Shown here piece after piece: positions 25,566-57,614 of a DNA stretch of 64,000 nucleotides. The notes beneath the pieces were generated by a model that was not told the DNA's origin, did not search any database, and saw only the letters and a list, made by a program, of their open reading frames with translations. The DNA lies in NCBI GenBank assembly GCA_000091205.1, contig AP006493.2, one strand, 5' to 3'. Origin of the DNA: Cyanidioschyzon merolae (Eukaryota). A program made the translations under genes and the position numbers. Position 1 is the stretch's first letter; each line of letters starts with the position of its first letter.

Positions 25566-26012
25566 AAGGTGCCAGAGCTGTCGCCAAAACAGCCGCGCCA
25601 TTCGCACTAAAAGCTCAAAAGGAACCGCGGAGGACAGGATACCCGCCCCACTGTTCCTCCGAACCGTGCGCTCGTCCATTCGACATACAATCGTCGTAGG
25701 CAGTTGACGCGTTCGGCGCGAATTCCTCCTATTTGGCGTTCGTAGCAGCTTGGCGCTATGGGAGCGAATCGGCGACACCGGTGGCCTCCGCCGGGATTGC
25801 GAGCCACAAGTGCTCAGAACAAACAACGCGTGGCTGGTCTTTGACGATTTAAGCGTCATTTTGCTTTTCTGCACAGGTCTCTATAGAATCAACCATAGGA
25901 ACCGCACGGAATACCTGACGCAGACTTGAACAGTATTGCCAGGAGCTATGGATTACACAGCCGCTGCATCTCCCGACGTGTGACGTGCAGCTGCGGGTAC
26001 AGCGCCCTCGAC

Positions 26013-27107
26013 ATGACGACTGCCATCATAGTTCATATATGGATAAAATTACTAGCACATGATCCTCAACCTCCCAGGCGATCTGCCGCGGAGCTCAGCG
26101 AGCACTGCCCTCTTTGTTTTCAGGCTCCGCTGGACAGGCTCATGTTCATCGTTAACAGTTTCCGAAATAGCTCTCAAAAGAGGCCCTTTGTTCGTAGAAG
26201 ACAGCCTATAGGTTTGAGCGTGCGTCCGAAACGCTGGTGTCGCACGCATGGCCTCGTGCTTGCGGAACACGAGGCGCCGGGGCGCCGGGCACCTCAAAAA
26301 CCTGCGATCAGCCTCCGCCTGGAGGTGGCAAAGTCTGCGGCGAGTATAGCTTGTGCACTCTTGTTTGCACTTGTTTGCGAAGACCAAGCTCGAAATGGTT
26401 TGAGCTCCAGTGGAACATCGTTAGCATCTGCGGCGATGGAGTCGAGCTTTTGCGGGACGACGAGCGAGGCGAGGCCTGCTGCCTCCGAAGGAACATGTAT
26501 TCAGAGGTTCCTGGAATCTCTGCAAATTCCTGGAGCGTTTGCCGCGGATCTAACTGGATTTGTCGAAGATGACACTGGAACCTCTCCAGGAAGCGTGGTT
26601 TCGCGAGTAAATAGCTCGCTGCAGGCTTTGGTTCAGAATACTGGTTACCGGGTTTTCATCCTAATAAAACGTGACATTCCACTCGGAACGGACTTGAATA
26701 GTCTCGCTCGGGAGGTTTATGAGTCAAAGAATGGTGATGGCAATCTTCTTGTTCTTGTTTTGAATCCGAAGACAGCCAAGGGAGGGTATTACGCAGGTGA
26801 TCAAGTGCAGAGAGCCATCCCAAACTCTGTTTTGATGAGCATCGCGAACGAGACCTATCCGTTCAACACACTGCAGGGCAAGTATGGTGCTGCACTTCTG
26901 GACGTTACCAACAGACTGGAGGCCGTTCTCTCGGGTCGCGATGACCCTGGCCCTCCGGTCGTTCGCAAATCTGAGAAGGTGGCCTCTTTTAAGACAAGAG
27001 AGGAGACCGAGAGTCAGCGAAAGAAATATGTGGGCGTCGTCGCCACTCTGCTGATCATCAGCGTCGTCGCGCCTATGGCGCAGTACTTTTGGTACCAGCG
27101 AAAATAG
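26013..27107 (+). CDS. TPM-domain (DUF477) protein with C-terminal TM anchor, possibly organelle-targeted
   Basis: 'VFILIKRDIPLGTDLNSLAREVYESKNGDGNLLVLVLNPKTAKGGYYAGDQVQRAIPNSVLMSIANETYPFNTLQGKYGAALLDVTNRLEAVLSG' matches the TPM fold pattern. C-terminal TM 'YVGVVATLLIISVVAP'. The track start at 25926 is TTG; in-frame ATGs lie at 26013 and 26142. Confidence 0.45.
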   Translation: MTTAIIVHIWIKLLAHDPQPPRRSAAELSEHCPLCFQAPLDRLMFIVNSFRNSSQKRPFVRRRQPIGLSVRPKRWCRTHGLVLAEHEAPGRRAPQKPAISLRLEVAKSAASIACALLFALVCEDQARNGLSSSGTSLASAAMESSFCGTTSEARPAASEGTCIQRFLESLQIPGAFAADLTGFVEDDTGTSPGSVVSRVNSSLQALVQNTGYRVFILIKRDIPLGTDLNSLAREVYESKNGDGNLLVLVLNPKTAKGGYYAGDQVQRAIPNSVLMSIANETYPFNTLQGKYGAALLDVTNRLEAVLSGRDDPGPPVVRKSEKVASFKTREETESQRKKYVGVVATLLIISVVAPMAQYFWYQRK

Positions 27108-27237: not shown

Positions 27238-29364
27238 CTATCTTGCTTTAGAGCACGCGACCGTCTGTAGCATACTGGGGCCCTCCAGGGACACGGAACG
27301 CACTAGCGCCGCTTTGGGTAGGGCAGGCAGTGTCTGTCCCGGCAAAGCGGTGACGCTCGTGAAGTATCCACGCCGCTGCGTCCTCGCGCGGAGGCCCGGC
27401 GGGAGGGAGAAACCCTTCCCCAGCAGGCCACAGCAGCCGCAGCAGCATCTCCAAATGCAAGTTCGGCAGCAGCACAATAGCAAAAGAATGAGGAACAACA
27501 GGCCAATAAAAAACAAAATGTTCAGGATGCACACATTGGCGAAGATGCACCCAATATCCAGGAGCCCGCCGCAACTACCGCAACCGCCTGATGGGTACGG
27601 TGAACTTCCGGTATGCGTTAGGTTTCCAGATGTCGTCGATGCGCTGCCCCCTTGCGCGCCATCCGTAGTCCGCACACTACTAGCGTTAAATTCGAGAACG
27701 AGGACGTCCAGAACTTGACCCAGGGCGTTCCGCAATGTGCAGTTGCACACACCTGCTCCACCGGTCGCCTTGGTTTCTATAATAGGCAATGAAATTGAAA
27801 CAAGTTGACCCGGCGCTAGCGTCACGATCTGAGCCTGAATAGGTTCAACGTTAGGTTCACAGGATGCACTGACTGTAAACTGAGCCGCATTCTGTCCAGT
27901 TCCTTCAGAAACTATCCAAAGATCAATTAAACCTCCTTTCGATTGTGAAGTGAACGGATTAATCTTCGATAGATGACGTAGAAATCGAGCGGGTGCCAAA
28001 TAAATAGTGTAAAACAACTCCTCAGCCGCGAACTGTAGCACAACCTCAGTTGCTTGAGTCCGGTTTGTGAAAAACCGTAACAGTGGATTCCGTGGTGTCA
28101 ATCCACTGACGTCAAAATCACCAAAAAACTGGACAAAATAACTGCCAACCTTTCCGGTTTGCTCAAGAGCAAGATCCGAGTCATAGTAATCCTGAAGTTG
28201 ATCGTGGAGACATGATTGCGTTGGTCGCTCGCATCGCTGCCCCTCATTTGTGAATGCACTGTAACTAACACCAATCTTATCGCAAGTGTCTCCAGTGATC
28301 GTAACTAGATCGTTATCGATGAGCATCCACCGGTTTATCTCGGTGGGAATATAGGAAATTCGATCCACACACCAAGCCTCAGAGGTGTCGGTGCAGACTG
28401 AAGGAACGAAGAAGAGTTTCTCTGAGTATGATGGAGTTCCCTCCCACGGAGCAAAGTCACCAATCGCTTGAGCGCTTATTTTCCCGTTCGAGGCATAACC
28501 AATAGGAGAACTCGGTGAGAGTGAAATGATCTCGGTCGAGCAGTTTTGAATAGCTTGATCCTGATTTCCAACGAGCCCAGAAATTGATTTGATAGTACTG
28601 TTGGCGAGGGGGCATTTGGTAACGTTCACAAGAATTACAAAATTGACGTCGGGTTCGCCAATTTGGAAAGCAGAATACCACAAACTATCAAATCGCAAAC
28701 AGTGTGCTGACTCAGTGGGGTTATCAAAGTTGAGCAGACTGCAATCCAGTCCGCCACGAATTCTGTTTGGCGACAGCCCCAGTAAATCCCCAGCATTGCA
28801 ATCACAGCAGAAGCCTTGGGAGTAGAGTATCCGGTCTGCTGGTTTCGTTGACCAGCTGGGATTGTAAGCGTAACCGCATGTTGGGTCACTGCTGCCCCAG
28901 GTTGCGACGCACTGGTTATCCAGCCAGTTCAACGGACCCTTCTGGTTGTACTTGTAAACGATTTCATAGGGTTTGTTGTTAAAATCGCTTTGATAGTAAA
29001 GAGGGTAGTCCAGCCGTATCCTAGACTTTGTCAGTGTGATATGCACCTGATACTTGAAAGCGTACACTGTGTTAGGATTATCCGCCGATCGTACCGTTGC
29101 GTTCGCTGAACTGCTGCCGTACACGGCCTGGGTCGCACTTACGGAGGACGAGGCTGCCGTGGCTCCGTTTTCTACAGCTAGGGTAAGCACCCATTTTTTT
29201 GAGCAAGGAATGCTTCCTGGCCTCCCAGAATCCAGACAAGTAACTATACTTCCGACACCAGTAAGTGAGCCTCCGACGGAGGCAGAAAAAAACGGTGCTA
29301 CTAGCCACAGTGGGACTTGGAAAAATAGTAGCACGAATAGACTCCGCCGAAAGATAACCTTCAT
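27238..29364 (-). CDS. HAP2: Candidate HAP2/GCS1-type gamete fusogen (signal peptide, large Cys-rich ectodomain, TM helix, multi-Cys cytoplasmic tail)
   Basis: Signal 'MKVIFRRSLFVLLFFQVPLWLVAP'. Ectodomain blocks 'ILYSQGFCCDCNAGDLLG' and 'CDKIGVSYSAFTNEGQRCERPTQSCL'. TM 'ILFFIGLLFLILLLL' followed by 'CCCRTCIWRCCCGCC' and a basic tail. The overall architecture matches HAP2, but assignment is from memory of the family, not an alignment. The ORF is open to TTG 29517. Confidence 0.5.
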   Translation of the reverse strand: MKVIFRRSLFVLLFFQVPLWLVAPFFSASVGGSLTGVGSIVTCLDSGRPGSIPCSKKWVLTLAVENGATAASSSVSATQAVYGSSSANATVRSADNPNTVYAFKYQVHITLTKSRIRLDYPLYYQSDFNNKPYEIVYKYNQKGPLNWLDNQCVATWGSSDPTCGYAYNPSWSTKPADRILYSQGFCCDCNAGDLLGLSPNRIRGGLDCSLLNFDNPTESAHCLRFDSLWYSAFQIGEPDVNFVILVNVTKCPLANSTIKSISGLVGNQDQAIQNCSTEIISLSPSSPIGYASNGKISAQAIGDFAPWEGTPSYSEKLFFVPSVCTDTSEAWCVDRISYIPTEINRWMLIDNDLVTITGDTCDKIGVSYSAFTNEGQRCERPTQSCLHDQLQDYYDSDLALEQTGKVGSYFVQFFGDFDVSGLTPRNPLLRFFTNRTQATEVVLQFAAEELFYTIYLAPARFLRHLSKINPFTSQSKGGLIDLWIVSEGTGQNAAQFTVSASCEPNVEPIQAQIVTLAPGQLVSISLPIIETKATGGAGVCNCTLRNALGQVLDVLVLEFNASSVRTTDGAQGGSASTTSGNLTHTGSSPYPSGGCGSCGGLLDIGCIFANVCILNILFFIGLLFLILLLLCCCRTCIWRCCCGCCGLLGKGFSLPPGLRARTQRRGYFTSVTALPGQTLPALPKAALVRSVSLEGPSMLQTVACSKAR

Positions 29365-29642
29365 AGGAGAAGAAAAGCATACTCGAAAATAAGCAGTTGC
29401 AATGCTAGGTGGAGTTAAGAATCGGAAGGTATTCACTGGGACTATGAAAACACACTTACGTCCGGCCCTCATCGGGCAGAAAAACACCGCGGTCTCGCTG
29501 CGATTTGACTCATCCAAAGGTCGCGAAGATCCGATGGGCGAGGAATGGGTCGCAAAAGTACATCAAGTGTGCAAGTGTGTAAAACATTTTTCTCGAAAAT
29601 CAGTAAAATACATTCTCGTTCTCCTTCACGTAACAGAATTCA

Positions 29643-32600
29643 ATGATCTGTTTTAGCCTGTTTCGCATAGTTTCCAAGCTGTCGCTTGCAGCACTCTTGT
29701 GGCTTGTACTGCATTTTCTTCAAAAAGAAATCCTCGGAACCTCGCCAGCTGTGCAGATGAATGTAGTCCCTGAGGTTGCTCGGGCATCAGGGAATACGTC
29801 ACCTCTTTTCCTTTTCTATGAAGAATGTGGGGGGGCAAATTGGACTCTGAATCGCTTTTGCTCGAGCAATTGTTGGACTTCAAACTCTTCTCCTTGTGGA
29901 AGTTCAGATGATTGGATATTTGTTGACTGCACTTCAGCTGGACAAGTTTCAGGGCTCCATCTTGAACATGAAAATATATATTGTGGAGGGATCCCGGAGG
30001 AACTTGCATCGCTTGGTTATCTAAGTACGCTGGACCTGAGTTACAACCCAGATCTTCGTACAGTAATACCAACTTGGATATCGAATTTCACGAATCTCGT
30101 TGAGTTAAAATTTGAGGATTCTGGATTCTATGGTGAGGTGCCTGATAGCATCTGTATGTTACGTAGCCTTTCTTCTCTCAAAGGGAGGGAAAATGATCTT
30201 TCCGGAACAATTCCTGATTGTATAGGAGAGTTGAAATACTTGCATGATTTAAGTTTCGCGAGCAATGAAATGTCTGGCCAAATACCCGATTCTATTGGAA
30301 ATTGCAGCAATTTATATTTCTTGGACCTTAGTAACAACAATTTCTCGGGAACACTTCCGGATAGTATCGTCTACATGAAGAACTTGCAGATACTCGACTT
30401 ATCATACAATAGCCTCGAAGGCACTCTTCCGGAACTCTTCGGATTCAGCGAGCTGCAATTGCTCCTTCTCGGTCACAACAATTTCAGTGGCACCATACCG
30501 GAGTTGCCTCCGAACCTAGTCGCCGTGGACTTCTCGAGCAACAATTTCAGTGGACAAGTTCCCATTCTGCCCTCTACAGTAACAAGCGCCAACTTTACCG
30601 GAAATCACTTCAGCTGCCCGATCCCATTGGGATCCATATATGACACGGCGTCATGCATATGTCCCGCCGGCTGGGCTGGTAACCGTACGACATGCAAACA
30701 GTGTAGTCCCGGCACTATCGCACCCACAGATGGTTCTAGTGTTTGCATGGCGTGCCCCAACGGAACGTTTGCAAATGCATCGACAAGCTTCAGATTTTGT
30801 GGTACATGCCCTGCGGGAAGCTTTGCTGTATCCCCAGCCGGAAACTGCTCAATCTGTCCAAAAGGAACCTATCAGCAGTCGCGCGGTAGTTCCCAGTGCA
30901 ATACCTGCGCCCCAGGCTATTTCACGGACGAACTTGGAGCGAGCTCCTGCAAAATATGCCTGGCAGGATCTTATGCAGAACTAGCTGGAAGCACGGAGTG
31001 CAAAGCCTGCGCCCCGGGAACCTACGCAGCGAGTAACGGATCGACTTCGTGTCAAGCATGCGCAGCGGGCTCCTACGCCGGCAACTATAGCTCTGCTACA
31101 TGTCAGATATGCCCGGCAGGATCTTATGCAGAACTAGCTGGAAGCACGGAGTGCAAAGCCTGCGCCCCGGGAACCTACGCAGCGAGTAACGGATCGACTT
31201 CGTGTCAAGCATGCGCAGCGGGCTCCTACGCCGGCAACTACAACTCTACAGCGTGCGAGATATGCCCGGCGGGATCTTATGCAGAACTAGCTGGAAGCAC
31301 GGAGTGCAAAGCCTGCGCCCCAGGAACCTACGCAGCGAGTAACGGGTCGACCTCGTGTCAGACGTGCAAAGCGGGCTCCTACGCGGGCAACTACAACTCT
31401 ACAGCGTGCGAGATATGCCCGGCAGGATCTTATGCAGAACTAGCTGGAAGCACGGAGTGCAAAGCCTGCGCCCCAGGAACCTACGCAGCGAGTAACGGAT
31501 CGACTTCGTGTCAAGCATGCGCAGCGGGCTCCTACGCCGGCAACTATAGCTCTGCTACATGTCAGATATGCCCCGCGGGAACGTATGCAGCGAGTGAGGG
31601 TTCAAGTTCATGTGAGCCCTGTCCACCGGGGAGTTCCGGGAACTCTATTGGATCCAAGTCATGCTCACTATGTCCGGCTGGCTCGTTCGCAGCTTCAAAT
31701 GGGTCCACTATGTGCCAAAAATGCCCAGCCGGTTACTTCAGTGACACGCCCGGGGCTGCAGCTTGCAAACCATGTCCTCTGGGCGTCTTTGCAAGTTCAG
31801 AGGGCTCTCGTGCGTGCTCCTTATGTCCGGCAGGGCAGTATGCGCCAGTCAATGGATCCGTCTTTTGCTTGAACTGTCCGCCGGGGAGCTTTTCGAATCA
31901 CTCTGGAGCGTCTACGTGCTACCAGTGCGGCGCAGGCTACTTCTCAGACACGCGTGGCTCCACGAGCTGTAAGCTGTGTCCTTTGGGAACTTTTTCCGCT
32001 GGACAAGGGCAGACTAGTTGCGAGGCTTGCCCACCTGGTTTCTATACAAACCAAACAGGATCGACCTCGTGCAGTTCCTGCGCTCCAGGGCATTATCAGC
32101 CCAGCACTGGCGCCGGCGGCTGCTTACCGTGTCCCGCTGGTACTCGGGCCGGCGCGTCCGGTGCTCCACGCTGCGATGCCTGCCCTTCGGGAACATTCTC
32201 TAACGTGACAGGTGCTGCAGTCTGCATAGAATGCCCAGCAGGTTGGTACTCCCAGGGTAATAGTACAAAGTGTATCGCTTGCGACACAGGGAGTTACGCG
32301 CAGTTCAATGCCAGCGGCTCATGCACAGAAGCGCCACCGGGGAGTTTTGTCAACAGTACTGGAGCGGCGTACTTCCAGTATTGTCCACCGGGAACATTTT
32401 CAAACCGGAGCGGTGCATCCAAGTGCGAACCATGTGAAACAGGAACCTTCGTGACTTATCTGGGCGCGACATCGTGCACAGCGTGCCGTGCGGGCTACTC
32501 CGCGCCTGCCAACGGCTCTGTGAACTGCACCGTTTGTCCGGCCGGTACATTTGCGTATACAGCCCCGGACGCTGCTGGGCTTGGGCGAGGGGCGTCCACA

Positions 32601-33629
32601 TGCAAGCCCTGCCCAAAAGGGACTTTTAATCAATACGAGGCGCATACGAAGTGTGAGCCTGCTCCCAAGGGAGGCTACGTGAGCACTGACGGATCCACGA
32701 AATATGAAGTGTGCTCGCCTGGGATGTATTCAGATTCCTCGGGTGCTTTTGTCTGCGAGCCGTGTCCGAACGGGTATATGAGCGCCAACAGCTCCGCAAC
32801 TTCTTGCGTCAAATGCCCCGCAAACACGTATTCAGCGAACAGAACCGGTTCAACGGCGTGCAAACCGTGCCCAACTTTGGCGTACTTTGAGAGTGTCGTC
32901 GTGCCTCAGTACCGCGTCTGCAGTCCGAATGCGGCATCCGTTTTCGCAATCATTGCCGTTATTCTTGCTGGAATCCTACTTGCCATGCTCGTTTGGTACC
33001 TTGCTCGCCGCTACAGAGCGTACAGAGGGACAAAGCCTAACAAACGGGAACAAGATGTTGCTTCATCTGCTCCGCGCTCCGCGGAGGTGACCCACCGCCG
33101 CAAGTCGCGATCAGTATTGCGCCGTGGTAGCGATGACGGAGAAGTGCACCCAATGGACACCGTTTCAACGTTTGCAGCAATTCCCGTGTCAAGAGACGAA
33201 TTGGAAAGCAAATTCAGGACGCATCGCTCCTTTTCCGAGGCGATAGAGCCGGTCACGCCGGATCAACCGCAGCGCCGAATATCAAGATACAGTCGCTCGG
33301 TTTCAGCTTCGAGATTCGGAATCCTTCTGGCATCCACTGCAGCATCTGGAGAGGGACGCTCCCAAAGTCTCACCCGGAAACGTCTATCATTCGCTACAGA
33401 GCAAGCGGCACGGGAGAGTGCCCACGGAGACGATGCAGCTTCCGACACGGACGATATTGTCCCGCTGCCGGGCAGCACACCCCAGCACCTGGCAGGAAAT
33501 ACTCCGCGAAAGCAGATTACGTTCGCAACTCCACAAAAAGAGCCAAAGTGGATTAGGGTCAGGACGGAGGAAGGTGCATATTACTTGCTGAATCGCCTGA
33601 ACGGAGAAATGTACGCGATCGGACCCTGA
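29643..33629 (+). CDS. Large type-I receptor-like surface protein: signal peptide, plant-type LRRs, ~25 ephrin-receptor/TNFR-like Cys repeats (CxxCxxGxY), TM helix, ~210-aa cytoplasmic tail
   Basis: LRRs 'LSYNPDLRTVIPTWISNFTNLVEL', 'NDLSGTIPDCIGELKYLHDL', 'NNFSGTLPDSIVYMKNLQIL'. Repeats 'CKACAPGTYAASNGSTSCQACAAGSYAG...'. TM 'VFAIIAVILAGILLAMLVWYL'. The start codon is ATG. Confidence 0.75.
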   Translation: MICFSLFRIVSKLSLAALLWLVLHFLQKEILGTSPAVQMNVVPEVARASGNTSPLFLFYEECGGANWTLNRFCSSNCWTSNSSPCGSSDDWIFVDCTSAGQVSGLHLEHENIYCGGIPEELASLGYLSTLDLSYNPDLRTVIPTWISNFTNLVELKFEDSGFYGEVPDSICMLRSLSSLKGRENDLSGTIPDCIGELKYLHDLSFASNEMSGQIPDSIGNCSNLYFLDLSNNNFSGTLPDSIVYMKNLQILDLSYNSLEGTLPELFGFSELQLLLLGHNNFSGTIPELPPNLVAVDFSSNNFSGQVPILPSTVTSANFTGNHFSCPIPLGSIYDTASCICPAGWAGNRTTCKQCSPGTIAPTDGSSVCMACPNGTFANASTSFRFCGTCPAGSFAVSPAGNCSICPKGTYQQSRGSSQCNTCAPGYFTDELGASSCKICLAGSYAELAGSTECKACAPGTYAASNGSTSCQACAAGSYAGNYSSATCQICPAGSYAELAGSTECKACAPGTYAASNGSTSCQACAAGSYAGNYNSTACEICPAGSYAELAGSTECKACAPGTYAASNGSTSCQTCKAGSYAGNYNSTACEICPAGSYAELAGSTECKACAPGTYAASNGSTSCQACAAGSYAGNYSSATCQICPAGTYAASEGSSSCEPCPPGSSGNSIGSKSCSLCPAGSFAASNGSTMCQKCPAGYFSDTPGAAACKPCPLGVFASSEGSRACSLCPAGQYAPVNGSVFCLNCPPGSFSNHSGASTCYQCGAGYFSDTRGSTSCKLCPLGTFSAGQGQTSCEACPPGFYTNQTGSTSCSSCAPGHYQPSTGAGGCLPCPAGTRAGASGAPRCDACPSGTFSNVTGAAVCIECPAGWYSQGNSTKCIACDTGSYAQFNASGSCTEAPPGSFVNSTGAAYFQYCPPGTFSNRSGASKCEPCETGTFVTYLGATSCTACRAGYSAPANGSVNCTVCPAGTFAYTAPDAAGLGRGASTCKPCPKGTFNQYEAHTKCEPAPKGGYVSTDGSTKYEVCSPGMYSDSSGAFVCEPCPNGYMSANSSATSCVKCPANTYSANRTGSTACKPCPTLAYFESVVVPQYRVCSPNAASVFAIIAVILAGILLAMLVWYLARRYRAYRGTKPNKREQDVASSAPRSAEVTHRRKSRSVLRRGSDDGEVHPMDTVSTFAAIPVSRDELESKFRTHRSFSEAIEPVTPDQPQRRISRYSRSVSASRFGILLASTAASGEGRSQSLTRKRLSFATEQAARESAHGDDAASDTDDIVPLPGSTPQHLAGNTPRKQITFATPQKEPKWIRVRTEEGAYYLLNRLNGEMYAIGP
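30949..31560 (+). repeat. Four tandem 153-bp (51-codon) near-identical units inside the receptor-like CDS
   Basis: Units begin at ~30949, 31102, 31255 and 31408. Each encodes 'C(K/Q/E)IC(L/P)AGSYAELAGSTECKACAPGTYAASNGSTSCQ(A/T)C(A/K)AGSYAGNY(S/N)S(A/T)(T/A)' at ~97% nt identity. Confidence 0.9.
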
Positions 33630-33675
33630 TTCATGGAGCATGGCGCATCGCTTAAAGTCGGATGCCATTGGCAGA

Positions 33676-34848
33676 CTATCCCCCGGCAGGATTCGGGAAC
33701 GCCGCCCGCGGAGTGCCTTCATCTATGTCTGATTTCGGCGTGTACGCTTCTGTTGAGGCAGCACCGGAGCTCGTTCGCACGGCGTCGGCTGCAAAAGGGT
33801 GCATGCTCATGATGAGAAGGTCCAGCTCCGCCAAACCGTGTATCCTTTGAGCGTGGAATAGCAGATTAGCCTTTTGTGCGAAAGGACGGCCGCAATCCAA
33901 AACCGGGCAACGGAAGCGTATTTCCCTCAGATGCACGGCTCTGTAGTGCGTGTTTGCGTTTCCTTTCTGAGAGAATCTTCTACCACAGCCCGGATACGGG
34001 CAGCCGAATGGCTTTTCTCGCTCGTGAACTGTTCTTATGTGAACCTGCAAATTCCCACTCAGGGTAAAACGCCGCCCGCAGCCCGAAAAAGGACACACGT
34101 GCTTTCCAAACTGGCCCCGCTGCGCACCGGGTGGCAAATTCGAGCACCTTCGTTTGCGGCGAGGCTGCAGGGAAGTCCCCGAGTGATAACGCTGATCCAA
34201 TGTTATTAGACGTGCGGCTTCTGAATCGATCCTGCCGAGCCACGTTCCGGTCGGAGCTGACCGTGGCGTTGCCGGAAAGCGACTCAGTGGCGAGCTTTCG
34301 GAGATGCTTGACATTACATTTCCACTGGATTCATCGCACTCGAGAGCAAACAGCTCCGCTCCCGAGACGGCCAGCGCATCGGTCGTTCGACTTGTCGATG
34401 GCGCACTGTGGGGAATGCTATCTTGTGAAGGCGAGTCTAATGTCGATGCGCCAGGTGCGGTGCACACCGAACTGATGTCCTCTGACGCGCATCGACTTAG
34501 AGGTCGACTCGTTTCAAAGGAGGGCGACCACAAGTTCGCGACCGGAAAGGCTGGAGCCGAAAGCGGCGCGCACGGGATCCCCGTCTCGTGTAGCAGAGCT
34601 TGGGTCCCGCTGGTCACGGAGACCGACAGCTCTCTCCAGGGAGGCCTCCTAGTGCTCTTTCCGACATTCGCTTGCCTAACTGTACCTTTCGGGGGTACAT
34701 TCTGTTCATGATCCTCAAGGAGATCAGCTATGTGCACGCGTAGATCGTGTTCTGAGAAAGCCGCGCGAAAGGGTTCCGCTCCAATGCCGCTCGCACTCGG
34801 CTGTTCAGAAGACGTTCCTCGAGCGTCGCTGGGCGTCACCGCTTCCAT
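33676..34848 (-). CDS. C2H2 zinc-finger protein (three C-terminal TFIIIA/YY1-type fingers)
   Basis: 'HVCPFSGCGRRFTLSGNLQVHIRTVHEREKPFGCPYPGCGRRFSQKGNANTHYRAVHLREIRFRCPVLDCGRPFAQKANLLFHAQRIH'. The track start at 34869 is GTG; the first ATG is at 34848. Confidence 0.7.
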   Translation of the reverse strand: MEAVTPSDARGTSSEQPSASGIGAEPFRAAFSEHDLRVHIADLLEDHEQNVPPKGTVRQANVGKSTRRPPWRELSVSVTSGTQALLHETGIPCAPLSAPAFPVANLWSPSFETSRPLSRCASEDISSVCTAPGASTLDSPSQDSIPHSAPSTSRTTDALAVSGAELFALECDESSGNVMSSISESSPLSRFPATPRSAPTGTWLGRIDSEAARLITLDQRYHSGTSLQPRRKRRCSNLPPGAQRGQFGKHVCPFSGCGRRFTLSGNLQVHIRTVHEREKPFGCPYPGCGRRFSQKGNANTHYRAVHLREIRFRCPVLDCGRPFAQKANLLFHAQRIHGLAELDLLIMSMHPFAADAVRTSSGAASTEAYTPKSDIDEGTPRAAFPNPAGG

Positions 34849-36109
34849 CCCCTGAGCTGTGTCACTCACTGAACAGGTGGCCCACGAAACGTGGAAGCGT
34901 TAAAAAGCAAAGATATCAACTAAACCAATGATAAACACAGAAAAGTCAAAGAAGACGCTTACAGCCCCTTCAAGCGGGACTGCCTCCGCGATTCAGAGCA
35001 CAGCAAGTCTCAAACCTGCTACGTCCTTCGAACCTTCCTTCTCGGGGCACCTCGTGCTTCTACCAACCCTCAACGGTCTTTTAAGACGCACGAAGCGCAC
35101 CAGGAGCTCGAATCTCTAACGAACAGAGCCCGAAAATGGATCTTTATCGTGTGTCTCTTTCAGGCGCCGCCTGCATCTGTGCGGGTTGTCATGTCGACCA
35201 GGCCGATTTCATGGCGGATGGCAGGGGCGCGGCTGCGAATCGAACGGAGGGCTGTGCGAAGCGCAGGCCCCGACCTATTTCTACGGCTGCGCATATGGAC
35301 ACGTGTCAGGGAAAACGATCTCCGCGCGTGCACTCCAATTCTGGCAGGCTGGTGCGTCACGGTCACATTGCTGCTCCACGCTCATGTCGATCGCGCTGCG
35401 TTCGCTGCTGCTTGACGTGACGCGGTATCGGTCGTGAGGGACAGATGGAGACGCAGAAGTAGGCACTGTGCACGAGATGCTCCACAGGTGCGGGACACGT
35501 TTAGATGTAACTCGAGACCCTAATTGGGAAATATATCAAACAAGAGATTGTGTGTCCCAAGTGCAAAGGCGCCCAAGACTCTCACGTTCGAGTGCGAGAT
35601 TTTCTCGTCGCTGAGAAACACTAGGTTTGCACCCAGAGGAGACGAGTAAAACTGTGTGCTTTGAGACGTGTAGCTTGGTTCCTGTGGAAGCCTTGTCTAT
35701 AAGACTTTGACATACGCATGCGACCGCGCCATTTTTCCCGGTCGTTGACTGACGAAGCTCGACAGTTCGACTTCCTTACCTGTAGAAAATTAACGACTCA
35801 CTCTGCACCTGCGCACTGCTGTACGTCATGGTTGCGCAGGCTGTACCGCGCATGAATACCAATTAAGCAAATAGGTAAGCTCGCTTCAACTATTACTGTA
35901 GTTGGAGGATGGCAACGGTTTCGATGAAAAGCAGAGCACAGGCCTGTGGGCTATGCCCTCGGGAGCTGTAGGACTTCGATCTGCAGCCGTGGAAAAGTAA
36001 AGCGGGGCACTGTGCTGCATGCTTTTGTTCATGTCTACTGATATTCTTTCCGAATTGTTTTCAGAGTTACTGCGTCGACATTCAAAGTGCAGCCGCAAGA
36101 GCACACGGC

Positions 36110-37250
36110 TCTGTACGGAGGTTTGCGATGATCCGGCGTCGTTTCGAGTCGCTCATTCAACTCGCTGTCGTTGGAACTCGTTCCGCCACCGGAATCACGA
36201 TGCTTTGCGACGCTCTCGAACGAAGATTCGTAAAATAACCGATCTGGTTATCCTGTTTGTACGCACAAGCCGTATCTTCACAGTTCCTTAATTGGAGCAT
36301 GCTCATATTACACGTTCTTCAAATTTTCAATCTTTCTAGTTAAAGGCAACTCGTGGGCGCAGCAATGCGATCCTCTGAATATACGAGGAAAACTACCAAT
36401 CGTCTTTGACGACTTTTTTACAAACTCACGCCAAAATTGCACTGAACAGCACATGAGAGATAATCGATGCCGCTCGAAACGCAAGGCGTTCTCTCTTTGT
36501 GGATATCAAAGAAACGGGATTCTACAGCTGCATGATGTCCCGAAAGGGATGTGCTCCTAGAGGTTCCGGTCTCTTTTGTTTCCATACAAAATCGTTCTCG
36601 ACCCGGACTTGAGTCATCGCAGCGATCGCTTCCAGTGGAGAGGGCGTCATCGCTTTGCAACATGATAGTATAGACCGATCGAAATTTCTCGGTTTGCTCT
36701 CCAGCCCGAGGGCTCTTTCCGATGCTTGTTCGATCGTGGACGAAATCGCACCCCATAAATACCATTTTGAATGGAACAGCACGCGCTTGCGCGTGCCACA
36801 GACAGCGTACATGTCGAAGAAATTGCCCAGTGGGACCCCGTGGTCTTGAGAAACGGTACGGGGCGTTGAAACGGAGAATGGCACCAGTGATAGCGTCCTG
36901 TGCCCGTCAAGGGTATGTACTGAGTAACGCAGTAGGCGTTCACGCGGCACAAGTCAGCTCTGGTAGGCGGAGGTATGATTGACATGTAGTAACACACGAC
37001 CACAACCAGGTGTCACAGCCGCGAAGGACACACCTACGCTGTACATAAAGACGATGAACCTGGCAAGGGAAGTGTAGATCCTAGCCTCCCTCTGTGCATG
37101 AAATGCGGAGATAACAGCCGGCAGCAGCGAAATCAGGACTCTAACGCCGCCGTCAACATACCGTGACTGCTGACAACGGAACTGGACGGACAGGAGAGAC
37201 CGACTAATTTCAGGCCGGTGCTTTCAGAGAGCGAAAAAAATTTGTCAAAG
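36110..37250 (-). repeat. R1-B: full-length copy of the R1 dispersed repeat family
   Basis: Collinear with R1-A, R1-C and R1-D. The overlapping small ORFs at 36418-37003 match R1-C ORFs in more than one frame, so conservation is at nucleotide level. Confidence 0.7.
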
Positions 37251-37980
37251 AACAAGCCCACAAATGCTGGTGTTCTTAACTGTGGAAAAAGATCCAAACT
37301 TTAGCTTGTACGCTCGTGTTAGAGTAAATGTTCCATTTTATTCTGACGTAGGTGTCGATGATCGACGAGCATCCGCTGAAAGTTCCACGATAGTGCAGAG
37401 CCTCGATCCGGTTGTAGTCCAGGGCGAAAGCATGTGGGGGCTCGGAATCCAATCAAAGACTTTGTGTCGTTACCACTGATGCGTGTTCCCATGGTGCACT
37501 GTAGGTGCGTCTTATCGGACTCCCAGGGATAGCTACCAGCTGTCGATAAGCAGCGGTAATACCATCGTGTACCCACGCACGCTCTAGAGAATCCCGTGCG
37601 CCTCTGATCCACATGCCAACAAAATTGCGAGAAAAAAGTGAACAATTTTCTACTGGTGCCAATAGCACTCAGAGATACGCGTCCAGCCATTCACCAGGAT
37701 AAGGTGCACAACGCGTTGCAGGGCGCTGTCGCGTTCCAGTTCCACGCTTGGAGCAGCCTCGAAGCACTGCGCCGCATTTGATGGCGCTTCGCGCGCCGAC
37801 TGGACGGTGCCGTTCCAACGCGCAGACGTTAGGGAGGGTCGCTCTCCGCCTCGACAAGCCGTACCCAGTAAACCTCTCGGGAGAGTTCCTTGTGCGAGAC
37901 AAAAGCTTACCTTACTCGAGATCCTTCGATTCGTACGCGGTAACCCGAGACGCTTCATAAGTGAAGTCTTGCTTTTCTCC

Positions 37981-54675: not shown

Positions 54676-57006
54676 CTAGACTGGCATCGTCTCCTGCGAA
54701 TCCTGCGGCACCTTGGGCGCGTCGATCTGGTCGATTCGTTCTTCATGTGCCGCAACCCGTGATATGCCAAGGTCCGCTAACTGTCTCTCGTCGACGTCGC
54801 TCGGTGCCGCGGTCATCAATTCGCTGGCGCTCGTTGTTTTCGGAAAGGCAATCACATCGCGCAAACTCTTCGCCTGAGCGCACGTCATGAGAATACATCG
54901 ATCGAGTCCGAAAGCGAAGCCACCGTGCGGTGGTGCTCCGTACCGGAGCGCCTGCAACAAGAACCCAAACTTGGCCTGCTGCTCCTCATCGCTGATCGCT
55001 AACACGCTCAGAACAGCGCTTTGAATCGCCGGATCATAAATGCGGATGCTGCCTCCTCCGATTTCCGTCCCGTTGCATACCAGATCATAGGCCTCCGCTC
55101 GAAGCTTCAAAAGTTCCTGCGTCAGGGTAGCGTCTTTGGACAATGAATCGGGTTTTTCTCGTATACGTTGAACGAGCGTCAACAGCAGATCACGCTGGTC
55201 TTCCCGCGGCGAGGTGAATGGATGATGCACGCTAGTCAGTCGATTGTACTCATCGTCCCAGGCGAAGAGCGGAAAGCCGACTACCCAGCAAAATCGATAA
55301 TCTGTTTCATCCACGAATCCTCTTTCCTTGGCAATTTTGACACGAAGTCGACCCAAGGAGCCGAGAACGACGGGTCGCGAGCCAGCCGCCACCAGGAGGA
55401 GACTGTCAGGGCGCGCTCCCAGCTGCTCCACAAGCTGCCCTGCAACCGTTGGCTCCAGTTTGTTGAGCGGTCCGCTGTTTATAGTAGGCCGCCCGTCCGA
55501 TGATCCAATTTTGCCCCAGAGTAACCCAGATAAACCCAGTTGTTTCACAAACTGAGTATAATCGTCGATGACTTTTCTGGAGGTGTGTGGCGCGGCTCCC
55601 GGTACCACGAGAGCCCGAATGGTTTCTGCGCCTCGAAACGGCGCAACAGCGCAGAGGGCCTCAAAGAAATGCCAGTGTTGCGCTGTGTTGGATTCTCCCT
55701 GATTCGCAGACCAGATAGGCTGCAACTCGAGACCAAAACGCAAATCTGGCGCATCGGTTCCGTAACGCTCCATACAGTCATCATACGTCATCACCGGGAA
55801 CCGCAAACCTTGTCGTGCAGTGTTGCGAACCAACACTTCATCGTTCTTGAGCTCCTGCTCTGATAATACATTAGAAAAAAGCGCTTCGGCAACGCGCTCA
55901 ACAGTATGCATCACATCAGCTGCGCCCACAAAACTCATCTCCAAATCGACTTGCGTAAACTCCGGTTGACGATCCTGCCGCAGGTCTTCATCGCGAAAGC
56001 AGCGCGCAACTTGAAAATACCGATCCATACCACCAATCATGAGCAACTGTTTGTAAAGTTGCGGGGATTGTGGCAACGCATACCATTTTCCACGATGCAC
56101 GCGGCTAGGGACGAGGTAATCTCGCGCGCCCTCTGGAGTAGCTCGCGTCAGTATCGGTGTCTCTATTTCGACGAATCCGAGGCTATCGAGAACACGCCGC
56201 ACAGCCATGGTGGCCTCGTGACGGCGGATCAGAGCAGACTGCAGGGACGCTCGGCGCAAATCCAGGTACCGATATCGCAGTCGGGTTTCCTCCGAGGCAC
56301 CCGTGGTCGCCAGCTGACCAGAACCCGGACGGCCCGTTGTCGTATTGCCTGTCTCGGGGCGTTCCATGTCTAAAACTAGGGGCAAAGGGTCTGCCCTGTT
56401 CAGGACTTCGATGACATGGGCTGCAATCTCGACACTGCCGGTCGGCATCGAAGCGTTGACGTTCGCGGGATCTCGAGCACGTACCGTTCCACGAACGCGT
56501 ACCACAGACTCTCGTCGGATCGTTTTCACCTGAGTCCGAAGCGCTTCCGGGCTTGCAGCGTCAATCGTGACCTGGACGATGCCATGTCGGTCACGCAAAA
56601 GCAGAAAAGTGACGCCACCCCGGTCTCGTATGGTATGCGCCCAGCCGCAGACGGTGACGGTGCATCCAACGTGCTCGGAGCGGAGCGCACCGCACACATG
56701 TGTGCGGAGACTGGTTTGCGTCTCAGAAGCCGCAGAACAAGCGAGCAGTTTCACTGAGCGTGGTTGCTTTCGCTGTGGGCGACTCGCTCCGACCGGATGT
56801 GTGGCGACTTCGAAGCGCCGCGCGAGGAAACTTCGCTCACCCGAATTTCCCGTCAGAAAGTGCAACCAGCAACGCGAAAACGATAAACGCCCAAACGCCC
56901 ACGGCTGATATCGAAGCGGGCAGTTTCGCACGTCTCTCGCGACTCCTGACGCACCCAGCGGTTTCGCCAAGAAAGCAAAGCCGCACGTTGTTCGGAGAAG
57001 CTTCAT
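54676..57006 (-). CDS. Aspartyl-tRNA synthetase, bacterial/organellar type (class IIb) with N-terminal presequence
   Basis: 'TVCGWAHTIRDRGGVTFLLLRDRHGIVQV' (anticodon-binding OB fold). Class II motifs 'FRDEDLRQDRQPEFTQVDLEMSF' and 'GGGSIRIYD...HGGFAFGLDR'. The ~70-aa N-terminal extension rich in R/S/L suggests organelle targeting. The track start is GTG 57024; the ATG is at 57006. Confidence 0.85.
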   Translation of the reverse strand: MKLLRTTCGFAFLAKPLGASGVARDVRNCPLRYQPWAFGRLSFSRCWLHFLTGNSGERSFLARRFEVATHPVGASRPQRKQPRSVKLLACSAASETQTSLRTHVCGALRSEHVGCTVTVCGWAHTIRDRGGVTFLLLRDRHGIVQVTIDAASPEALRTQVKTIRRESVVRVRGTVRARDPANVNASMPTGSVEIAAHVIEVLNRADPLPLVLDMERPETGNTTTGRPGSGQLATTGASEETRLRYRYLDLRRASLQSALIRRHEATMAVRRVLDSLGFVEIETPILTRATPEGARDYLVPSRVHRGKWYALPQSPQLYKQLLMIGGMDRYFQVARCFRDEDLRQDRQPEFTQVDLEMSFVGAADVMHTVERVAEALFSNVLSEQELKNDEVLVRNTARQGLRFPVMTYDDCMERYGTDAPDLRFGLELQPIWSANQGESNTAQHWHFFEALCAVAPFRGAETIRALVVPGAAPHTSRKVIDDYTQFVKQLGLSGLLWGKIGSSDGRPTINSGPLNKLEPTVAGQLVEQLGARPDSLLLVAAGSRPVVLGSLGRLRVKIAKERGFVDETDYRFCWVVGFPLFAWDDEYNRLTSVHHPFTSPREDQRDLLLTLVQRIREKPDSLSKDATLTQELLKLRAEAYDLVCNGTEIGGGSIRIYDPAIQSAVLSVLAISDEEQQAKFGFLLQALRYGAPPHGGFAFGLDRCILMTCAQAKSLRDVIAFPKTTSASELMTAAPSDVDERQLADLGISRVAAHEERIDQIDAPKVPQDSQETMPV

Positions 57007-57614
57007 CTTCCAGTTCCTAGGCACACTCCTGCTACGCGCAAGCGAACAGTAAGAGAACCGACGGAAACACCCGCTGTGTACTTGAACCTGCTGCGGTGCG
57101 CGCCCAGGGGCTACGCTCGCCCGCTAGCGGAGGGCAAGCACCCGTCGCTTCTCGCACCGCGCTGTTGCGTTGTGTGCAGGGCGCCAGAGCCAGCCTCTCC
57201 TGAGCTATAACTGCCAAAAATCGTCCAGTTCTAATGTGCAGGCCGCCACACACACACACACAAATGCGTCAGCCAGCACAAAATCCTCACAAAAAGGGTC
57301 AATGAACCCAAGAGAAACACCCAATGCTGCCCGTGCTACTTGTAGTTGCGCTTCGCAGCAGCGCTAGCGACCGCGGTAGCTATGAGCACGCCTCCCCCGC
57401 CGACGGATGCGTATTTGCCGCAGCCGCAGCAGCAGCAGCAGCAGCGCAGGCGAGACTGCGCGGCTCGGGGCGATGCGCCGGCGATCGATCGTCCCTGCGA
57501 AAGCGATGCACTGTGGGTGAAAGGCCCCTCATTGCGTAGCGAGTAATCGATCTATAAATTCCTGGTTATTGTAGCTCGTGCTTCCGTCTTGTTCCACAGG
57601 TGCTTTTGGGGTTT

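Follow-up and report, generated by a model that had tools for sequence, protein, structure and literature searches.

FLO1/ALS-type adhesins of yeast carry in-frame tandem units of about 100–150 bp in their ectodomains, and recombination between these near-identical units alters their number and the exposed length of the protein. In LPA, near-identical copies of the disulfide-bonded kringle IV type 2 domain vary in number between individuals by unequal recombination, and the protein stays folded. Here we describe an array of this general kind in a receptor-like gene on contig AP006493.2 of Cyanidioschyzon merolae (GenBank assembly GCA_000091205.1). The gene lies in a stretch of 64,000 nucleotides that we analysed as a whole and call the window. 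As in the yeast adhesins, the repeat is in frame and sits in the ectodomain of a surface protein. However, the unit at this locus is a disulfide-rich folded module of three CxxC hairpins, not a Ser/Thr-rich low-complexity spacer, and it occurs in one to four copies. Near-identical folded disulfide domains are what it shares with kringle IV type 2, but the LPA repeat is a multi-exon unit of 5.5 kb present in dozens of copies, whereas ours measures 153 bp, is intron-less and is contained in one exon. The kind of feature, a coding minisatellite in a surface protein, is already known; the organism and the protein are new for it. The explanation that we prefer, with a probability of about 85%, is that the array is a minisatellite in the stalk of the protein that arose by tandem duplication of one unit after the split from a sister species, with recombination exchanging sequence between units.

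Across the region from 28 to 35 kb, Tandem Repeats Finder (TRF) reported a sole array, at 30954–31590, with a period of 153, 4.2 copies, 91% matches, no indels and a score of 1050. Aligned in frame, it resolves into the four head-to-tail units (U1 to U4; Table 1) that an earlier reading of the bare letters, the sequence-only reading, had described in this gene. The copies stand well above background, 153 bp is exactly 51 codons, and the open reading frame (ORF) is kept in all alleles. What lies here is a true coding minisatellite, in frame with its gene yet of an ordinary kind among the variable repeats of surface proteins. Background was taken from 637 pairs of same-register 153-nt segments of which at most one lay in the array; their mean identity was 35% and their maximum 56%, in agreement with the earlier statement that the other Cys modules of the protein are far more diverged. 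The identity of about 97% given for the units in that reading applies only to U1 and U4 (97.4%), and the remaining five pairs fall between 87.6% and 94.1%. The window units differ from one another at 4–19 positions, and the longest exact internal repeat is a run of 126 nt across which U1 and U2 are identical. A unit does encode 51 amino acids (aa), as had been stated. It is not a double Cys module, however: each contains three 17-aa CxxC modules with six Cys, which together make up approximately one Pfam Ephrin_rec_like domain.

The four window units vary at 20 columns, nine of them synonymous and 11 in residue-changing codons. The changes (K/Q/E, L/P, A37T, A39K, S48N, A50T and T51A) extend beyond the Y(S/N)S(A/T) positions; the sequence-only reading had called the differences mostly synonymous or at those positions. 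They are clustered and mosaic, and no simple duplication tree accounts for them. One cluster, the P block (columns 92–131), is private to U3 within the window and combines six synonymous changes with A37T and A39K, which give QTCK. The linker at the end of the unit reads YSSATCQ in U1 and U4 and YNSTACE in U2 and U3, and the synonymous column 68 splits U1 and U2 from U3 and U4. Every unit has two N-x-S/T sequons, one of which moves from N-Y-S to N-S-T between the two linker types. Synonymous divergence (dS) between units with the standard body and units with the P block is approximately 0.25–0.37, and nonsynonymous divergence (dN) is below dS in all unit pairs.

To compare arrays, we scanned metagenomes with the host protein, which gave four contigs, and looked up records with an identical 459-aa TAF6 product, which gave further contigs. 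Seven assemblies span the array: the window and six metagenome contigs (L004–L007, L011 and L012). All comparisons were made on assembled contigs, whose flanks are ~99.2–99.5% identical to the window. We describe each unit by its head (K, Q or E), its body (S for standard, P for the P block) and its linker (A, B or B'), where B' is a GCG GCC variant (G45A) that is missing from the window. The sequence-only reading had proposed comparing unit number between isolates; in the seven assemblies we found seven different arrays of one to four units, every length a multiple of 153 bp and the ORF intact (1226, 1277 or 1328 aa; Table 1).

The seven arrays together contain 20 units, with 11 distinct sequences and 22 variable columns, and the four-gamete test yields 23 incompatible site pairs within 153 bp. 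No unit departs from the others at a Cys or scaffold G/Y position. The P block recurs in units of L004, L011, L012 and L013. What follows the K head is an S body with G68 in four arrays (window, L004, L005, L007) but a P body with A68 in L011 and L012; the span of this linkage is below one read length. One junction is specific to the window (Table 1). A search with its 45-mer against all fetched loci had a single match, in the window itself, and the sequence that it has in common with other contexts amounts to ~8–11 nt (ATATGCCC), which is too short for a k-mer or graph misjoin. Because the window and L011/L012 all have four units but show two different orders, and because the window has this unique junction, structural turnover of the array within the species is certain.

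The contigs represent different strains or populations and are not copies of one assembly, since their flank haplotypes are distinct: 48 sites vary in 6.2 kb, with mosaic sharing. When 30303–37719 is compared with L001, L002 and L004–L007, three left-flank single-nucleotide polymorphisms (SNPs) occur only in L005 and L006, and right-flank SNPs group the contigs otherwise. Such a patchwork in the flanks fits recombination between strains in nature.

Related species help to date the array. The DDX47 protein encoded in the window is 100% identical to a metagenome protein at JGI and 88%, 86% and 74% identical to three other metagenome proteins. Its identity to the proteins of named algae and plants is ~60–65%, with the best relatives spread over green, red and glaucophyte algae. 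Contigs L008 and L009 belong to the species with the 88% DDX47, the sister species, and L010 belongs to the species with the 74% DDX47. All are syntenic with the window, in which the conserved order from ~33.6 to 57 kb is host gene, zinc finger, TAF6, Ssu72, DDX47, UDP-glucose dehydrogenase, RRM/CCHC protein and aspartyl-tRNA synthetase (AspRS). The orthologs of the host gene in both species are continuous ORFs, and the contigs of both end inside it. The L008 ortholog (977 aa, cut by the contig end, 59% aa identity to the window protein) carries the 153-bp unit just once and shows no tandem repeat, and the L010 ortholog lacks the module region of the repeat unit. Each of the four window units is 62–65% identical to the sister-species unit, as against 88–97% among themselves. 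Together with the single unit in the sister species, this places the expansion, or at least the homogenisation, after the species split. Given the dS between S and P units and the 126 nt over which U1 and U2 are identical, the array joins an S/P dimorphism of some age to events that are very recent. The single sister-species unit, the seven different arrays, the mosaic units and the incompatible site pairs support the sequence-only reading, which had pointed to unequal crossing-over or slippage as the source of a recent expansion and to a fast-evolving ectodomain length.

We propose that the array goes back to one ancestral 153-bp unit (51 aa, three 17-residue CxxC modules), of which tandem copies arose once the species had separated from its sister. 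The units have exact tracts of 62–242 nt in common, which should suffice for homologous recombination between misaligned units and for conversion. Whole units could then be added, deleted or patch-converted by unequal crossing-over, by exchange between sister chromatids or by conversion during repair. Every product would be a multiple of 153 bp, with the same start and end point in the 17-aa module. Exchange in unit register would thus preserve both the frame and the Cys register, so that the variants should be tolerated, and alleles with 30, 33, 36 or 39 CxxC modules would be expected to fold. The window allele may have arisen when a one-unit end (K unit, linker A and Q) was joined at 8–11 nt of microhomology to a three-unit array. 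Each added unit (three modules, six Cys, two sequons) presumably lengthens a glycosylated stalk under the N-terminal leucine-rich repeat (LRR) head. A change in stalk length would be the sole predictable effect. The presence in the window of HAP2-GCS1, a gamete fusogen gene, and the mosaic flanks are consistent with a sexual, recombining population.

Beyond turnover as such, we infer that true copy-number polymorphism in nature is likely. Several observations weigh against this and against our preferred explanation. Alleles of one to three units are confined to older short-read assemblies (JGI24721J44947, Ga0078972, Ga0123519 and Ga0207433), and each can be derived from an L011/L012-like four-unit array by a jump in a common tract of 50–110 nt; real unequal crossover and de Bruijn collapse leave the same signature in short alleles. 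The newer contigs L001 and L002 (re-read as L013 and L014) end inside the array, at a P unit, as would be expected given that the first and third units of the L011 type have at least 152 exact nt in common. L012 holds a 242-nt exact internal repeat, and its count of four may be a minimum. Fresh unit expansion also appears not to be a general property of the family: none of nine Ephrin_rec_like-rich proteins that we sampled has near-identical internal units (their internal 51-aa windows reach at most 43–75% identity), and assemblies are biased against such repeats. It is possible, if doubtful, that the short arrays are collapse artefacts of short-read, small-k metagenome assembly and that only unit order is polymorphic, with four or more units always present in nature. 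The confinement of short arrays to older assemblies and the breaks in L001 and L002 fit this, as does L006, which begins at a break in the LRR region and so suggests fragile assembly. However, in L004, L005 and L007 the K head, G68 and linker B' stand together in the first unit, within ~130 nt, a combination that is not in L011/L012, so the short alleles are no plain collapse of those arrays. Column 41 differs as well (a versus c), L005 and L007 differ from each other at column 68, and unit exchange demonstrably occurs, so unequal products are expected. The sequence-only reading had itself allowed for collapse or expansion in assembly. This could hold for the short alleles, but the four units of the window are matched by L011 and L012. 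We consider it improbable that the window array is itself mis-assembled, whether expanded, strain-chimeric or collapsed from a longer array. Tandem repeats are error-prone in assembly and the exact 1328-aa product matches no record, but two independent assemblies likewise give four units and a 1328-aa ORF. Moreover, the exact repeats of the window array stop at 126 nt, its units differ at 4–19 positions, its frame is intact, and its specific junction has too little common sequence for a graph misjoin.

The remaining alternatives concern the age and the cause of the array. We give little credence to a duplication older than the split, in which the similarity of the units would reflect concerted evolution by continuous conversion and the sister species would have lost copies secondarily. 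The dS between S and P units is far above the strain divergence of ~0.5%, which means that at least two unit lineages are not brand new, and conversion between units is evident. Against this, the unit is single in the sister species and absent from the third species, so parsimony favours a gain in the window lineage, and the window units are equidistant from the sister-species unit. Less credible still is that the array varies by diversifying selection on stalk length or unit content, the host protein being a gamete or cell-surface recognition molecule co-regulated with HAP2. The likely ATGs of the two genes, which are arranged head to head, are ~278 bp apart, the linker variants swap five of seven residues and shift an N-glycosylation sequon, and the host protein evolves fast (59% identity between species versus 88% for DDX47). 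Yet the genome has a gene about every 3 kb, which makes a divergent neighbour weak evidence; P0002, the sole distant homolog of the same architecture with a readable gene context, has a neighbour other than HAP2; and dN is below dS in all unit pairs. Tandem duplication after the split followed by recombination between units is the explanation that we retain.

At this locus nature offers a clean case in which a folded disulfide-rich domain, and not a low-complexity spacer, has been amplified and shuffled in frame within one species, and independent environmental assemblies hold several of its alleles. The array also marks a site where short-read metagenome assemblies break or may collapse, and gene models and copy numbers there need long reads. 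It could serve as a strain-typing marker. Its biological importance is modest unless the link to HAP2 is functional.

Table 1. Positions in the window of the host gene, the array and their parts, followed by the unit composition (head-body-linker) of the seven arrays. Col, column of the 153-bp unit; TM, transmembrane; u, unit.
Feature	Position	Strand	Description	Basis
Host gene	29643–33629	+	One uninterrupted ORF, 1328 aa from ATG to stop; type I membrane receptor-like protein	ORF list, translation, Pfam
Probable signal peptide	29643–29738	+	aa 1–32, hydrophobic core LSLAALLWLVLHFL	Inferred by reading the translation
Plant-type LRR region	29970–30509	+	aa ~110–289	Pfam LRR_1, LRR_8, LRR_4 and LRR_14 above cut-offs
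Cys-rich stalk	30693–32870	+	39 CxxC motifs, aa 351–1076	Motif spacing; Pfam Ephrin_rec_like, TNFR_ELAPOR1_6th, NCD3G
Tandem array	30948–31559	+	4 x 153 bp = 4 x 51 aa = 12 CxxC modules (aa 436–639)	TRF, unit alignment
Unit 1 (U1)	30948–31100	+	K head, CTG (Leu) at codon 5, G at col 68, standard S body, linker A (YSSAT)	
Unit 2 (U2)	31101–31253	+	Q head, G at col 68, S body, linker B (YNSTA)	
Unit 3 (U3)	31254–31406	+	E head, A at col 68, P block, linker B	
Unit 4 (U4)	31407–31559	+	E head, A at col 68, S body, linker A	
Window-specific junction	31081–31125	+	Linker A and CAG, then unit body in place of the diverged module	
Array 3' edge	31560–31590	+	Start of the following diverged module, whose first ~30 nt resemble a unit start	The 0.2 copy of TRF
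TM helix	32940–33002	+	aa 1100–1120, VFAIIAVILAGILLAMLVWYL, then basic ARRYRAYR	Read in the translation; kept in both orthologs
Cytoplasmic tail	33003–33626	+	208 aa	Pfam and homolog searches
Array, window			4 units: K-S-A, Q-S-B, E-P-B, E-S-A	
Array, L011			4 units: K-P-B, E-S-B', E-P-B, E-S-A; 1328-aa gene called here too	
Array, L012			4 units: same as L011, plus SNPs in u4	
Array, L004			3 units: K-S-B', E-P-B, E-S-A	
Array, L005			2 units: K-S-B', E-S-A	
Array, L007			2 units: K-S-B', E-S-A; col 68 of u2 is G, not A	
Array, L006			1 unit: K-S-A	

In the stalk of the host protein, 30 of the 38 CxxC spacings are exactly 17 aa. Pfam Ephrin_rec_like (PF07699) scores 339 bits against a cut-off of 23.1, over 25 stretches, which places the protein among the PF07699 repeat proteins. 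Among proteins of solved structure, the Chlamydomonas mastigoneme protein Mst1 (PDB 8tx1; phmmer E = 1.5e-47) is nearest to the stalk, and ELAPOR1 (PDB 9vqm) comes next; both have the same type of 17-residue CxxC module in long runs. Mst1 is a filament-forming flagellar hair protein, whereas the host protein combines its stalk with an LRR head at the N-terminus, a TM helix and a cytoplasmic tail. Searches with the whole protein were dominated by generic LRR and Ephrin_rec_like matches (best identity 31–34%), and the LRR part matched many receptor-like kinases and receptor-like proteins of plants. With these plant LRR proteins it has in common a probable signal peptide, an N-terminal Cys-pair cap, LRRs of the form LxxLxLxxNxLSGxIP and a single TM helix. 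It differs from this group in having a CxxC stalk of ~730 aa between the LRRs and the membrane, a 208-aa tail and no kinase domain. An assignment as an LRR receptor-like kinase, which the extracellular LRRs and single TM helix would allow, was rejected on this last point: Pfam found no Pkinase match in the whole protein or in the tail. Giardia variant-specific surface proteins (VSPs; PF03302) are, like the host protein, CxxC-rich type I surface proteins. We rejected this assignment too, as the Pfam score of 20.4 bits is below the cut-off of 31.4 and the C-terminus ends in EMYAIGP, with no CRGKA tail. Variation at our locus concerns repeat number and order at one site, whereas Giardia VSPs vary by expression switching among paralogs.

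A homolog search returned no match for the C-terminal 302 aa (the end of the stalk, the TM helix and the tail), and the cytoplasmic tail contains no Pfam domain. Its last 27 aa (33546–33626, KWIRVRTEEGAYYLLNRLNGEMYAIGP) are near-identical in the sister species, and the rest of the tail is unconserved. The conserved C-terminal motif reads KW[IV]RV[RK]T..G..YLLNRLNGEMYAI[GS]P. Its likeness to a WW domain is superficial; the last 40–42 aa of the window and sister-species proteins matched no Pfam family at E <= 10. Exact-sequence look-ups with the 1328-aa host product, the XRN-like neighbour and two HAP2 start variants returned no match. Several JGI, ENA and Logan records list as a gene an 84-aa ORF at 29402–29656 (plus strand), which overlaps the start of the host gene. 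This ORF is almost certainly a miscall of a prokaryotic gene finder in the region between HAP2 and the host gene, and its use as a left-side handle for exact matches gave no new array-spanning contigs.

The neighbour on that side, at 27238–29364 on the minus strand, is a full-length HAP2-GCS1 gene (Pfam E = 6.9e-170), and its presence implies that the organism is sexual. In Chlamydomonas, the HAP2 partner MAR1 is a single-pass adhesion receptor with a Cys-rich head/hook, a Pro-rich extended stalk and a disordered cytosolic tail, and it reportedly has no homologs outside green algae (PMC13601591). The host protein resembles MAR1 in crossing the membrane once and in having a putative recognition region far from the membrane, an extended stalk and a long, disordered cytosolic tail. 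Its gene adjoins HAP2. There is no sequence homology between the two, however, and the link of the host protein to HAP2 is a conjecture from adjacency. By this analogy, there is a slim chance that the host protein is a gamete-surface recognition or adhesion receptor, that it is divergently transcribed with HAP2 from a shared promoter region of ~280 bp, and that stalk variants affect mating compatibility. If so, it would be a functional analogue of MAR1 in a non-green lineage, and the array would yield length and glycosylation variants acting on mating in natural hot-spring populations.

Genes are densely packed in the window: both strands carry long ORFs, introns are not obvious, and scans for Rfam families and tRNAs gave no match. 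Besides HAP2-GCS1, it encodes TAF6, DDX47/Rrp3, an XRN-like protein, a C2H2 zinc-finger protein, a TPM-domain protein (25926–27107, plus strand) and a bacterial-type, organellar AspRS with an N-terminal extension of ~100 aa (54676–57024, minus strand). Contigs of the relatives encode DUF1825, CBM_20, TIC20 and an LHC-like protein. Taken together, these families, TPM and AspRS included, hint that the clade may be photosynthetic.

L005 has Ns at polymorphic sites, pointing to a mixed population in its sample. Its positions 1–1143 (JGI24721J44947_10003175) encode a different N-terminal/LRR domain, with 49% aa identity to that of the window. This part meets window-like sequence at ~30276, and the join, which falls in a conserved LRR stretch (GQIPDSIGNCSNLYFLDLSNNNFSGTLPDSIVYMK), contains ambiguous bases. 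What appeared as a 77% match is the same locus (99.3%) joined to an N-containing, paralog-like 5' end. The 5' end is probably an assembly chimera with a paralog, the alternative being a real domain-swapped allele, and only the right part of L005 was used for comparison. L006, L008 and L009 also start near the ~30276 point.

In L010 (ENA ERZ1300892, NODE_18), the LRR-coding region of the ortholog is itself tandem at positions 9–322, with a period of 72 nt and 4.5 copies, or a period of 144 nt and 90% matches, and the contig breaks off at this point. Repeat instability affects different parts of the host gene in different species.

The source of one same-species contig, Ga0078972, is a Yellowstone hot-spring metagenome (PMC8986864). 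The eukaryote of the window is probably an acidophilic or thermophilic alga, and its habitat, GC content and scarcity of introns suggest that it may be a cyanidiophyte red alga. ERZ1300892, the source of L010, is a microbial mat assembly from Rio Tinto, at a pH below 1, whose content has been called 'cyanobacteria-related contig sequences' (PMC11052175). L010 itself is a 136-kb contig at 129x coverage that is eukaryotic nuclear in content (TAF6, Ssu72, DDX47, C2H2 zinc finger and organellar AspRS), which indicates that an acidophilic eukaryotic alga was abundant in the Rio Tinto sample.

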